A DNA stretch of 64,000 nt from Thermodesulfobacteriota bacterium (GTDB taxonomy: Bacteria; Desulfobacterota; Desulfarculia; Adiutricales; JAGVGV01), in contig JBFMAW010000008.1 in NCBI GenBank assembly GCA_040755515.1, forward strand, positions 135,016 through 199,015, read 5' to 3'. The notes under the pieces are model-generated. The model searched no databases and was not told the DNA's origin. It worked only from the letters and a program-made list of their open reading frames with translations. Below are positions 16,765 to 22,623 of the stretch, in pieces. How positions within the stretch are numbered: position 1 is the stretch's first letter; each line of letters opens with the position of its first letter. The position numbers and the translations under genes were made by a program.

Positions 16765-17601
16765 TCATTCCACGTTTTCGGACAGGGCGGTAAAGAGCGA
16801 GTCCCGTTCCGAGACCGTGACTTCGGTGGGCTTTTCCTTTACTTGGTCGGATTCGAAGAACCAGGTCCGGTCGCCGCCCAGTCGTTTGGCTTGATATAAG
16901 GCCTGATCGGCCCGTTCGATCAGGTCCCGAGCTTCTTCCTGGTCATAGTGCTGATGGGTGGCCAGGCCGATGGAGCCGGTCACGCCGTACCGGGCCGTTC
17001 GAGGGTCTTCCGCGATCAGGCCGCGGATGCGTTCGGCCAGGGCCAGGGCCGCCGTGAGGCCGGTATCGGGCAGTATGACGGCGAATTCATCGCCGCCGTA
17101 CCGGGCCGGCATGTCCACGGCCCGGATGCCGCGGCGAATGATGTCGGCCATGGCTTTAAGCAGTTCATCGCCTTGCTGGTGGCCATGGAGGTCGTTGACA
17201 TGTTTGAAGCGGTCGAGGTCAATCATGATCAACGAACAAGGTTTCTCGGTCCGGTTGACCCGCTTCAACTCCACTTCCAGTCGTTCTTGAAAGTAACGGT
17301 GGTTATACAGTCCAGTCAGGCCGTCCGAAACCGACAACTCTTTTAACCGCTGGTTCTCCGACACCAGGGCCTTGAGACAACGCAGGGTTTCCAGGCTGTC
17401 CGGGGAAAGGGTCAGGGTCAGGTCAACTCTTTCCAAAAGGTCCTTGATCTGGTCCGCCCGCGGGTCTTGGAGGAGGAAAGCCAGACCTTGGGCCGTGTTG
17501 TCGTCGCCGCGGAGCAGGCCGGCCAGGGCCCCGGCTTTGACCAGTTCGTCGGCCAGCTTCTCCAGCCTCTGGATGTCCAGCGTTTCCTGCCTCGCTTCCA
17601 T
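16765..17601 (-). CDS. Diguanylate cyclase (GGDEF) with N-terminal helical region
   Basis: DGLTGLYN, DLDRFKHVND, RxxD I-site (RAVD) five residues before GGDEF. Confidence 0.93.
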   Translation of the reverse strand: MEARQETLDIQRLEKLADELVKAGALAGLLRGDDNTAQGLAFLLQDPRADQIKDLLERVDLTLTLSPDSLETLRCLKALVSENQRLKELSVSDGLTGLYNHRYFQERLEVELKRVNRTEKPCSLIMIDLDRFKHVNDLHGHQQGDELLKAMADIIRRGIRAVDMPARYGGDEFAVILPDTGLTAALALAERIRGLIAEDPRTARYGVTGSIGLATHQHYDQEEARDLIERADQALYQAKRLGGDRTWFFESDQVKEKPTEVTVSERDSLFTALSENVE

Positions 17602-17613
17602 TTGACTCGGCCC

Positions 17614-18645
17614 TTACAGCGCGTCCAGGATGGCTTGGGGAATGCTCTTCAAAGGCACCACCCGGTCCACTCCCCCCATTTTTATGGCTTCCTTGGGCAT
17701 GCCGAAGACCACGCAGGAGGCCTCGTCCTGGGCAATGGTTTTTGCGCCGGTCTGTTTCATTTTGTTGAGTCCTTCCGCGCCATCGGCGCCCATGCCGGTC
17801 ATTATTACGCCCACGGCATTGGCTCCGGCGAACTGGGAGGTGGCGTTGAACAGAACGTCCACGGCGGGACGCTGATGATGGACCATCGGGCCGGTCTTGA
17901 CCTGGACGTAGTATCGCGCGCCGCTGCGCTTCAGCAGCATGTGGTAATTTCCGGGAGCTATCAGGCAGGTGCCGGGCACCACGGAATCGTTGTCCTTGGC
18001 TTCCCGGACGTTGATCTTGCACAGGCCGTCCAGGCGTTCGGCAAAAGCCCGGGTGAAATTGGCCGGCATGTGCTGGACCACGACGATGCCGGGCGAATTG
18101 GGCGGCATGCGCGTCAGGACCTCCTTCAGAGCTTCCGTCCCGCCCGTGGAGGCGCCCATGGCCACCACCTTGTTGGTGGTCTGAGTCATGGCCCGACTGC
18201 TCAGGGTCGCCGATGGTCCAGGCTTTTCGGTGGGGTCTTTTTGCAGCGGTCTGGCTTTGGCGGCGGCCCTGATCTTATCGGCCAACTGGGCGCCCATTTC
18301 GCCCACGGAATAAGAACCGCCGGGTTTGGCGATAACCTCGATGGCGCCGGCCTCCAGGGCTTCCAAGGCCAGGGCGCTGCCCTTGGGGGTGAGCGAACTG
18401 ACGATGATCACCGGCAGGGGGAAATGCTTCATCAATTTCCGGAGAAAAGTGATCCCATCCATCCTGGGCATTTCTACGTCCAGGGTCAAAACGTCGGGTT
18501 TGAGCTGTAAAATCTTATCTCTGGCCACATACGGGTCTGGCGCGGCGCCAACCACTTCTATATCCGGCTCCTTGGACAGTTCCTCGGTGAATATTTTCCT
18601 GACAATGGCTGAATCATCGACCACCAGAACCTTGACCACGGCCAT
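17614..18645 (-). CDS. cheB: Chemotaxis methylesterase CheB (REC plus esterase)
   Basis: VVDDS, TLDVEMP, GASTGG, VQHMP and MTGMGADG motifs. Confidence 0.96.
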
Positions 18646-20016: not shown

Positions 20017-20055
20017 TATCGATCCTCCCGGTGTATCCACGTTGCGCCGGTTGCG

Positions 20056-22623
20056 TCAGGCCGGTCCCATGCCCCAATCGCCATCCATGTCCCAATCCCC
20101 GCCGCCGGTTTCTTCTCGGCCGCTGATGGGGCCTCCTCCAGACATGCCATCGCTCAGGACGAACAATCCGGCCACGTCCAAAATCAGCCCCACCCGGCCA
20201 TCTCCCAGGATACTGCCGCCGGCCAGGGCCTTTATGTGTTTGAGTCTTTCGCCCAGGCTCTTGATGACCACCTCTTGCTTGCCCAGGACCTCATCAACCA
20301 GAATGCACCGCTGCTCGCCTTCGTTCTCCACCACCACCACCAGAGCCTCGCTTGGGTCGGCCACGGCGCCGGCCGCGCCCAGGAGGTGACCCAGGCGCAC
20401 AAGAGGCAACAGATTCCGGCGCACCTTGATCATTTCACCCTGGTTCTTGACCGTATAAAAGTCCGTCCGGTTGGGCCGGAAAGATTCCCGGATGGCCACG
20501 GTGGGTAGGATGTAACGGTTGTCACCCACCCGGATGATCATGCCGTCAATTATAGCCAGGGTCAGCGGCAGTCGGATGGTAATGGTGCTGCCTTGGCCGA
20601 GACGCGAGCTGATTTCCACCTTGCCACGCAGTTTTTCTATGGTCTTCTTGACCACGTCCATGCCTACGCCCCGGCCCGAGACATCGGTTACCTTGTCCGC
20701 CGTGGAGAAACCCGGTTGGAAGATCAGGTTGTATATGGACGCCTCGGAAATACTATCATCCGGCGAAACCAGGCCTTTCTCGACAGCCTTGGCCAGTATT
20801 TTATCCCGGTTGAGACCCTGGCCGTCGTCCATGATCTGGATGACCACGTTGCCGCCTTGATGAAAAGCCTTGAGGTGTATGCGGCCCACGGGAGGCTTGC
20901 CCTTCTTCTCTCTATGTTCCGGCAATTCGATACCGTGGTCCACCGAGTTTCGGACCATGTGCACCAGGGGATCGGAAATGGCCTCGACCATGTTCCGGTC
21001 AATCTCCGTATCCTCGCCCGACAGGTCCAGTTCCACCAGCTTGCCGGACTTACGGGATAAGTCCCGCACCAGACGAATCATCTTCTGAAAGGTCTGGCGG
21101 ACCTCGACCATGCGCATGGACATGGCCGTGCGCTGCAGATCCGAGGTTATTCTGGACATGTGCCCCAAGTCCCGAATCAGCTTCTGGTCCTTGAGAGCGA
21201 ATATCTTATCGTTGGAACTAATCAGGGACTGGGCGATCACCAGTTCTCCCACCAGGTCCACTACGGAGTCCAGTTTAAGCGTATCCACTTTAACCGTCTG
21301 GCTGACCGCCGCGCCGGTTTGATCCGGCGGCCTCTTCTGCTCCCTCAGGGCGGCGGCCACATCCCGAGCCTCGGCCTGTTTCTCCCTGATTAGCAGTTCG
21401 CCCAGTTTTTGTTCTCGAAGGTTTTCCTGCTCCTGGATGACTTGAGATATAATCCGAGGGTCGGTCTTGCCGGTTTCGATCAGTATCTCCCCCAGTTTCT
21501 TGTCCTGCCGTTCGAGCTGAAGCCGCAGGGCTTCCTCCAGGTCTGGGGGCGAGAGCGCTCCTCTTTCCACTACCATTTCGCCTAGACGGCGCAGCCGGGA
21601 CACTTGCTGGGCCTGGAGGAGTCTTTCCAGTTCCTCCTCGGTGATCAATCCCTGCTCAATCAATATTTGGCCGAGTTTGAGGCCGCTGTAAGGCGAGACA
21701 GCGGGTACGGGCTCTTCCAGCGGTACGGCTTGCCGCACCGTCTTGATCCGTTCGATGAAGGCCGGCAGCCGGTAGTCGGCGGTCACGGCTTGATCCTTTT
21801 CGGCCGAAAACTTGAGATCGGTGATCATCTTCTTGAGCAGGTCCACCGCGTCCAGGATCAGGTCTATCAAGGCCGGCGTTACTTTAAGTCGTTCATTGCG
21901 GGCGTCGTCCAGCAGGTTTTCCACGTCGTGGGTTAGAATATGGACTTCCTTGAGGTTGAGGAAGCCGGAGACGCCTTTGATGGTGTGGAAAGGCCGGAAG
22001 ACGGCGTTGATGATTTCCACGTTTTCCGGTTCTTGTTCGAGGGAGACAAGATTGACCTCGATGGATTCTATGTGCTCCAGGGATTCACTGATGAACCCGA
22101 AAAAGAGATCCTGGTCCTGACTGGCTTCATAAGCCACCTCGACCGGTGGTTCGGTCTTCTTTTCCCGTGACGCGGCCTCATCCGTCTCGGCCTGGGCCTG
22201 AGGCCGGGTTTCCTCCGTGGCCGGGGCCGGTGTCTGGGCCTGGGCTGGCCCCGCCGGAGGCGTAAGTTCAATATTGACCGAGGACTTCAAACCGGCCAGA
22301 AATTTGGAAAGGTCTCCCCCATAGACCGCGCCGGCGCTCAGGCTCCGTTCGATCTCTTGCAGCAGGCCCACGCCCTGATTGACCACTTCGGCGGCCTGGT
22401 TTTTATCCTTGGTCTTTTCGAGGATTATGGCCTCGATGGTTTTCCGAACCCCGGACAGGACCAGATCGGCTTCAGCGCTGCCGAGGGGAGAAAAGGCTTC
22501 GGCCAGTTTCTCCGCTTTTTCCAGGATTTCGCCCAAAGAGATCAGGTTCTCCGGGTCGAGCATGACCAGAGCCAGGCTAAGTTCGTCCAGCCGGCGGCGC
22601 AGTGGGGATTCTTCCGAAGGCAT
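20056..22623 (-). CDS. cheA: Chemotaxis histidine kinase CheA with four internal MshEN motifs
   Basis: HPT (FRPFHTIKG), dimerisation (LDSVVDLVGELVI), HATPase (RNSVDHG, GFSTADKVTDVSGRGVGMDVV), C-terminal CheW domain. Confidence 0.96.
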   Translation of the reverse strand: MPSEESPLRRRLDELSLALVMLDPENLISLGEILEKAEKLAEAFSPLGSAEADLVLSGVRKTIEAIILEKTKDKNQAAEVVNQGVGLLQEIERSLSAGAVYGGDLSKFLAGLKSSVNIELTPPAGPAQAQTPAPATEETRPQAQAETDEAASREKKTEPPVEVAYEASQDQDLFFGFISESLEHIESIEVNLVSLEQEPENVEIINAVFRPFHTIKGVSGFLNLKEVHILTHDVENLLDDARNERLKVTPALIDLILDAVDLLKKMITDLKFSAEKDQAVTADYRLPAFIERIKTVRQAVPLEEPVPAVSPYSGLKLGQILIEQGLITEEELERLLQAQQVSRLRRLGEMVVERGALSPPDLEEALRLQLERQDKKLGEILIETGKTDPRIISQVIQEQENLREQKLGELLIREKQAEARDVAAALREQKRPPDQTGAAVSQTVKVDTLKLDSVVDLVGELVIAQSLISSNDKIFALKDQKLIRDLGHMSRITSDLQRTAMSMRMVEVRQTFQKMIRLVRDLSRKSGKLVELDLSGEDTEIDRNMVEAISDPLVHMVRNSVDHGIELPEHREKKGKPPVGRIHLKAFHQGGNVVIQIMDDGQGLNRDKILAKAVEKGLVSPDDSISEASIYNLIFQPGFSTADKVTDVSGRGVGMDVVKKTIEKLRGKVEISSRLGQGSTITIRLPLTLAIIDGMIIRVGDNRYILPTVAIRESFRPNRTDFYTVKNQGEMIKVRRNLLPLVRLGHLLGAAGAVADPSEALVVVVENEGEQRCILVDEVLGKQEVVIKSLGERLKHIKALAGGSILGDGRVGLILDVAGLFVLSDGMSGGGPISGREETGGGDWDMDGDWGMGPA

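Follow-up and report, generated by a model that had tools for sequence, protein, structure and literature searches.

Known routes of cyclic di-GMP (c-di-GMP) into chemotaxis run through PilZ adaptors and motor brakes, and direct c-di-GMP input into the kinase CheA has been predicted since 2016. In Wsp-type systems, a methyl-accepting chemotaxis protein (MCP) is encoded in the operon and a CheA–receiver (CheA–REC) hybrid phosphorylates the REC–GGDEF output protein WspR. In MshE and in PilF of Thermus thermophilus, MshEN modules are N-terminal on a secretion or pilus ATPase. For NfrB–DgcJ of Escherichia coli, the available passages of the source describe a dedicated cyclase that serves an MshEN effector, a glycosyltransferase with a C-terminal MshEN, and report physical contact (PMC10118264). 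The fusion of MshEN to CheA appears already in the available parts of Wang et al. 2016 (PMC5013675). Here we analyse a window of 64,000 nucleotides (nt), the whole stretch at positions 135,016–199,015 of contig JBFMAW010000008.1 from a Thermodesulfobacteriota bacterium, in which a seven-gene chemosensory operon on the minus strand encodes a CheA with four MshEN motifs and ends in the gene of a GGDEF diguanylate cyclase. We suggest that the best explanation of this arrangement, with a probability of about 0.5, is a c-di-GMP-sensing CheA that has its own cyclase in a feedback loop.

Four MshEN motifs in a CheA kinase

The CheA consists, in order, of an N-terminal extension, an Hpt domain (residues 177–264), the four MshEN motifs (316–429), the P3 dimerisation domain (441–503), a HATPase domain (550–688) and a CheW-like P5 domain (694–821). 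Its Pfam matches to Hpt (47.0 bits), H-kinase_dim (48.1), HATPase_c (67.6) and CheW (81.8) place it among the CheA kinases on every domain expected of them, and the kinase-core columns H555, N559, D599–G603 and G650–G654 are invariant, the assignment of N, G1 and G2 box labels to them being our own reading. No P2 domain was matched in it by Pfam at E ≤ 0.1, nor any REC domain; the MshEN region occupies the same place as the P2 domain of E. coli CheA, on which CheY and CheB dock. The relevant features are as follows.

20056..22623, minus strand: CheA, 855 amino acids (Pfam, NCBIfam and translation)
21985..21987, minus strand: codon of His213 (in FHTIKG), the expected Hpt autophosphorylation site (sequence)
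21607..21678, minus strand: MshEN motif 1, KLGQILIEQGLITEEELERLLQAQ, residues 316–339, which fits the strict and the relaxed patterns of Wang et al. 2016
21517..21588, minus strand: MshEN motif 2, RLGEMVVERGALSPPDLEEALRLQ, residues 346–369, which fits the relaxed pattern of Wang et al. 2016
21427..21498, minus strand: MshEN motif 3, KLGEILIETGKTDPRIISQVIQEQ, residues 376–399, which fits the relaxed pattern except at positions 11–12 (K, T)
21337..21408, minus strand: MshEN motif 4, KLGELLIREKQAEARDVAAALREQ, residues 406–429, with K and Q at positions 10–11 in place of G and a hydrophobic residue (h), and with K-L-G, h17, h21 and Q24 kept

The motifs start at residues 316, 346, 376 and 406, a period of exactly 30 made up of a 24-residue motif and a 6-residue spacer. 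The original prediction, made from the letters of the window, had reported four such tandem motifs of the MshEN type between Hpt and the dimerisation domain; they recur letter for letter in the translation, and the profile, database and fold comparisons below agree with the assignment. A tight control pattern, [RK][LI]Gxxhh-x9-h-x3-h-xx-Q, has four matches in CheA, compared with a mean of 0.0012 and a maximum of one in 5000 shuffles, and among the 56,278 stop-to-stop open reading frames (ORFs; at least 60 amino acids) of the genome CheA is the only one with at least two. A chance origin of the motifs is excluded.

According to the available parts of Wang et al. 2016 (PMC5013675), the ligand-contact positions of the MshEN motif are 1, 2, 3, 17, 21 and 24. 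All four motifs of the CheA read [K/R]-L-G ... [L/I/V] ... [L/I] .. Q at these positions, and the contact set [KR]-[LI]-G, h17, h21 and Q24 is invariant or nearly so across an alignment of 41 sequences, in which G3 and Q24 are, in every motif, either invariant or conserved to at least 90%. The changes at G3, h17, h21 and Q24 of XpsE-type loss occur in none of the four.

The 53-position NCBIfam model NF053729 (cyclic di-GMP-binding domain, MshE-related) matches CheA in two stretches, scoring 66.3 bits where the cut-off is 38 (E = 1.5e-18). The best stretch, residues 346–399, aligns to profile positions 1–53 of 53 and comprises motifs 2 and 3, and a whole-genome search gave the same result. Pfam T2SSE_N (PF05157) has no match in CheA at E ≤ 0.1, the short module being detected by the NCBIfam model alone. 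In a phmmer search of the PDB, Thermus PilF was matched at E = 9.9e-14 and Vibrio cholerae MshE (5HTL) at E = 8.7e-5. An AlphaFold2 model of the four-motif region, built from the 41-sequence alignment, comprises eight helices with a predicted local distance difference test score of 82; MshE or PilF GSPII domains make up all of its best 11 Foldseek matches (root mean squared deviation (rmsd) 1.1–1.9 Å over 56–59 columns, 30–38% identity), with E-values that are weak (0.17–1.8) owing to the short alignments. In VIA-align the model reaches Z = 11.3 with 5HTL_B (rmsd 1.9 Å, 59 residues aligned) and Z = 10.6–11.2 with c-di-GMP-bound PilF-GSPIIB, compared with 5.5 for the best unrelated chain. By family score, contact residues and fold, the repeats are true MshEN_N-type four-helix modules.

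The likeness to MshE (5HTL) and to GSPII-B of T. thermophilus PilF (8PDK, 8PFA) thus extends to the same tandem [R/K]LGxxhhxxGhhxxxxLxxxLxxQ motifs and the same four-helix bundle at 32–35% identity, the superpositions spanning Z = 10.6–11.3 and rmsd 1.3–1.9 Å over 57–59 residues. The CheA differs from both in having four equally spaced motifs rather than two, a spacer of 6 residues rather than 5 and no MshEN_C α/β subdomain; its module lies inside a histidine kinase, and its binding of c-di-GMP is a prediction.

The N-terminal extension (residues 1–170; 22114–22623) comprises about 110–170 residues before Hpt, is free of histidine and has no Pfam match. Its conservation in the sister family described below is weak (tblastn to residues 1–109, 26–34% identity).

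An intact cyclase at the end of the operon

The last gene of the operon encodes a protein with a small helical N-terminal domain (residues 1–60), a stalk helix (67–89), a GGDEF domain (92–244) and a C-terminal tail.

16765..17601, minus strand: GGDEF diguanylate cyclase, 278 amino acids, last gene of the operon (Pfam GGDEF 159.4 bits, TIGR00254 170.9 bits)
17113..17124, minus strand: I-site RAVD, residues 160–163, five residues before GGDEF (sequence)
17083..17097, minus strand: active-site GGDEF, residues 169–173 (sequence)
16768..16839, minus strand: conserved C-terminal tail, KEKPTEVTVSERDSLFTALSENVE, in which T259, E265 and L269 do not vary and F270 hardly does; helix predicted at 263–275

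Judged by its GGDEF and RxxD motifs, the cyclase is intact and canonical; Pfam gives no Response_reg match in it at E ≤ 0.1. Its tail follows the consensus [T]-x-[VIL]-x3-E-[RK]-[DEN]-x-L-[FY] in all members of the lineage, by which we mean metagenome-assembled genomes (MAGs) titled Desulfarculia bacterium, Candidatus Adiutrix sp. or Deltaproteobacteria bacterium, and in 35 further orthologues from the protein database. A profile of the tail run against the 56,278 ORFs matched the cyclase alone, and a recurrent docking tag is ruled out, there being no second protein in the genome with the tail. The segment E[RK][DEN]xLF resembles the CheY-binding peptides of the FliM N terminus and the CheZ C terminus. 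The remaining idea, that the tail docks on a receiver domain, may hold, and is weakened by one complete genome that has no close CheY orthologue. A three-chain complex prediction of CheY, CheB and the GGDEF protein, with an alignment for each chain, had a score of 0.00 and a mark of 0.32 and is counted neither for nor against.

Seven genes lie head to tail in the order REC–histidine kinase hybrid, cheY, cheA, cheW, cheR, cheB and GGDEF cyclase, every assignment being backed by Pfam, with successive intergenic gaps of −4, 9, 15, 4, 2 and 12 nt. Those not yet listed are given here.

23025..24179, minus strand: REC–HisKA-like–HATPase hybrid, first gene of the operon (Pfam Response_reg 108.5, HATPase_c 62.1 and HisKA 21.9 bits, HisKA being below the cut-off)
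22633..23028, minus strand: CheY-like single-domain receiver, 131 amino acids (Pfam Response_reg 95.5 bits)
19504..20040, minus strand: CheW (Pfam CheW 130.4 bits)
18663..19499, minus strand: CheR methyltransferase (Pfam CheR 212.9 and CheR_N 56.8 bits)
17614..18660, minus strand: CheB methylesterase with an intact REC domain (Pfam CheB_methylest 225 and Response_reg 72.2 bits)

The end of the hybrid gene and the cheY start share 4 nt (ATGA), the likely ATG start of cheB is at 18645, and the 12 nt before the cyclase separate the cheB stop (17614) from the GGDEF start (17601). In the CheY-like receiver the DD pair, the Asp that accepts the phosphoryl group, Thr and Lys are all in place. A promoter-like site on the minus strand (24497–24470) lies 5′ of the first gene. 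The sole minus-strand terminator-like site (18333–18316) is within cheB and none falls between genes, the number of sites being that expected from shuffles. From the gaps of −4 to 15 nt and the lack of an intergenic terminator-like site, the cyclase gene is almost certainly co-transcribed with the che genes. The original prediction had placed a cyclase with an intact GGDEF, an RxxD I-site and no REC domain 12 nt after cheB in the same operon, and coordinates and Pfam bear this out throughout.

Around the operon, a convergent CN-hydrolase gene ends 24 nt past the GGDEF stop. A sensor kinase with GAF, PAS, HisKA and HATPase domains (24475–26205, plus strand) is divergent from the operon and is followed by a 462-amino-acid ORF (26217–27605). 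The hybrid kinase gene (23025–24179, minus strand) is also found upstream in the related loci L001, L003 and L037 and could belong to a second branch of the pathway.

Distribution and a degenerate sister family

The full four-motif region was found in 41 of the 61 genomes searched (the present one included), all from three families of one order, and cheY–cheA–cheW–cheR–cheB are collinear wherever contigs permit (40 loci). Of the 27 loci with a cheB gene, 25 have a GGDEF-family ORF after it, as detected by a profile of the cyclase and its neighbours' counterparts; the exceptions are L010 and L028, the latter with just 172 nt left past cheB. RxxD and GGDEF are present together only in the window's own family, namely in the window, L001, L003 and, in a split arrangement, L122. 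When 23 of the ORFs after cheB were run through Pfam, two were canonical, and GGDEF was above the cut-off in five, below it in four and absent from 12, one of the 12 being a misassigned ORF. In a complete genome of the window's family, cheW–cheA(MshEN) at about 2.62 Mb (L002) and cheR–cheB–cyclase at about 1.12 Mb (L122) lie 1.5 Mb apart, and the cyclase, tail included, still adjoins cheR–cheB.

The sister family bears on how the parts may be connected. The window's own family has the Hpt histidine, a canonical CheY and RxxD with GGDEF; the sister family has lost these. In its CheA, the Hpt histidine is replaced by R or K (F[RK][TA]xLG in 25 of 33 ORFs, FHTIKG in none of the 33), and one of these proteins has no histidine anywhere before P3. 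In its CheY-like protein the second acidic residue is lost (DD to DR), Thr and Lys are changed, and the score is below the Pfam cut-off. Its GGDEF motif is gone (for example, LSEEE or LKDGE); most members still have RxxD, which a subgroup of six has lost. What the family retains are the four MshEN motifs, the kinase-core residues, CheW, CheR and an intact CheB receiver. The joint loss of the Hpt histidine, the CheY residues and GGDEF suggests a single CheA–CheY–cyclase route, in which the three chemistries would form one functional chain. The scaffold left in this family (L005–L036, for example L014:2013-10006) may be a phosphorylation-independent c-di-GMP sensor with a pseudo-receiver, a pseudo-GGDEF and, mostly, RxxD kept. 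Overall identity among the CheY-like proteins of both families is only about 25%, yet a C-terminal R-W pair (RWR or RWQ) beyond helix 5 is invariant in them.

Beyond the lineage, a search with CheA residues 296–445 gave 57 proteins; 34 of them, counting the query, have a CheA dimerisation domain. Among 80 species-genome loci, 30 of the 63 weaker ones (L059–L121) encode a CheA with one to three pattern matches just before P3: one match in 12, two in 15 and three in 3, one of the last being an Adiutrix-type locus. CheAs of the order Hpt–MshEN–P3–P4–P5 occur in MAGs titled Scalindua, Anammoxibacter, Desulfobacteraceae, Desulfatiglandales, Spirochaetia, Fibrobacterota, Acidobacteriota, Phycisphaerae, Hydrogenedentota and Chitinivibrionales. 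The fusion itself is not new, having been published (PMC5013675, in the parts available), and is present in several phyla; the suggestion that the window holds a new system falls to that extent. What is specific to the lineage is the doubled module, the dedicated, tail-bearing GGDEF gene after cheB and the degenerate sister family, the doubling and the dedicated gene being also what set this operon apart from other MshEN-CheAs. The synteny with a cyclase raised in the original prediction is accordingly borne out among relatives as to the position of a GGDEF-family gene, and fails as to catalytic integrity outside the window's family and as to its occurrence outside the lineage.

The genome of the window also encodes, on contig C15 (L041:9098-11206), a second CheA of 702 amino acids with one MshEN-type module before P3. 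Its cluster comprises REC, MCP-like, STAS, CheY, CheA, MCP, CheW, CheR, CheB and hybrid PAS kinase genes, with no GGDEF gene. In MAGs titled Gemmatimonadales or Gemmatimonadaceae (L087–L089, L108, L111, L117 and L118), MshEN-type motifs occur in non-CheA ORFs beside cheR, cheB and cheW, another possible link of c-di-GMP to chemosensory clusters.

A proposed feedback loop and its alternatives

On our preferred reading, c-di-GMP would bind the two MshEN modules that replace P2, with two to three molecules per CheA monomer, and binding would alter the reach or orientation of the tethered Hpt (P1) relative to the kinase core, thereby setting kinase output. The cyclase would be both the local source of ligand and the output of the pathway, reached from phosphorylated CheA through phosphorylated CheY in a split, Wsp-like route; it may be held near the array by its tail or its N-terminal domain and is probably driven by phosphorylated CheY. 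The loop would close there, with the I-site of the cyclase as a second brake on its own output. The direct gating of the kinase and the closed loop put forward in the original prediction are plausible; the sign of any effect of c-di-GMP on the kinase or the feedback cannot be deduced from sequence.

The Wsp operon of Pseudomonas is likewise a Che-like operon that ends in a cheB-like gene followed by a GGDEF cyclase, and c-di-GMP is the likely output. Unlike Wsp, the present operon has no MCP gene, its CheA lacks a C-terminal REC domain, its cyclase lacks REC and its CheY is separate, whereas the c-di-GMP-type modules on the kinase have no counterpart in Wsp. The operon may work like Wsp, but by these features it is not a member.

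Several observations weigh against the feedback loop. Pfam detects no MCP gene in the operon or the window, nor in one sister-family locus; the genome has 12 MCPsignal matches (11 above the cut-off), all on other contigs, and six further CheA dimerisation-domain matches. A GGDEF match lies nearby at only 1 of the 30 MshEN-CheA loci outside the lineage, and the loop is thus not general to MshEN-CheAs. The losses in the sister family count as a single evolutionary event and provide no independent replicates. In the genome with the split system the best match to CheY is 42% identical, compared with 69–75% in two other genomes, and is no close orthologue, which weakens the step from CheY to the cyclase. 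The pairing of the motifs is ambiguous, the profile and superpositions favouring 2+3 and the model, with its long helices alternating with short ones, suggesting 1+2 and 3+4, and this leaves two or three c-di-GMP sites per monomer. The motifs themselves deviate in having K rather than R at position 1 in three of four, K or Q at position 11 in motifs 3 and 4, no turn glycine in motif 4 and a spacer of 6 residues instead of 5; in the available parts of Wang et al. 2016 (PMC5013675), I19R, at position 11, is among the changes in the non-binding XpsE. In the literature searched, which included passages of reviews, we found no experimental study of any MshEN-CheA, as the original prediction had supposed in knowing of no characterised example.

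The alternative that survives best is an open loop, in which CheA would bind c-di-GMP and the cyclase would stand outside Che control, either supplying a local pool or being regulated by its own N-terminal domain. We consider it unlikely. As expected of one chain, the Hpt histidine, the catalytic residues of CheY and GGDEF were lost together, which speaks against it, and so does the order cheB–GGDEF, which mirrors wspF–wspR. In its favour are the conserved 60-residue N-terminal domain and stalk helix of the cyclase, the complete family genome that has no close CheY orthologue, and the precedent of NfrB–DgcJ, likewise an MshEN-bearing effector with one dedicated cyclase in the passages available (PMC10118264); here the putative effector is CheA, and its contact with the cyclase would be a prediction.

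It is more doubtful still that the repeats are MshEN-derived and no longer bind nucleotide, their role being that of a rigid helical spacer or of a dock for CheY, CheB or the GGDEF protein in place of P2. The P2-like position of the module would suit such a role, as would the K residues at position 1 and the deviant positions 10–12 of motifs 3 and 4, and MshEN homologues that have lost binding exist according to the available parts of Wang et al. 2016 (PMC5013675). However, the residues conserved in the 41 sequences are the ligand-contact set, for which a mere spacer would have no need; K at position 1 is permitted by the relaxed motif in the same parts of that paper; and K stands at position 11 in one of the three MshEN-type domains of Thermus PilF, a domain that may or may not be the c-di-GMP-bound GSPIIB.

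That the GGDEF gene is a mere passenger at the operon end, functionally unconnected with the Che proteins, as the lack of any Che-related Pfam domain in its product might suggest, is very improbable in view of a homologue after cheB in 25 of 27 loci from two families, its place beside cheR–cheB even where the system is split, and a tail conserved across both families and confined in this genome to the cyclase.

The feedback loop can be drawn more specifically as a self-referential circuit, in which a c-di-GMP sensor with two or three sites would tether Hpt, the output cyclase would be docked to the array by its C-terminal helix and the sister scaffold would act independently of phosphorylation; we put this forward tentatively, as an elaboration that is itself unlikely in full. 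If true, it would be a second-messenger feedback layer, for adaptation or as a bistable switch, over methylation. The operon is in any case a compact test case, with a doubled sensor, a dedicated and apparently intact cyclase and a comparison clade that lacks the phosphorelay and cyclase chemistry yet has the sensor motifs. If c-di-GMP binding and its effect on the kinase are true, they would define a new class of CheA regulation, present in several phyla.

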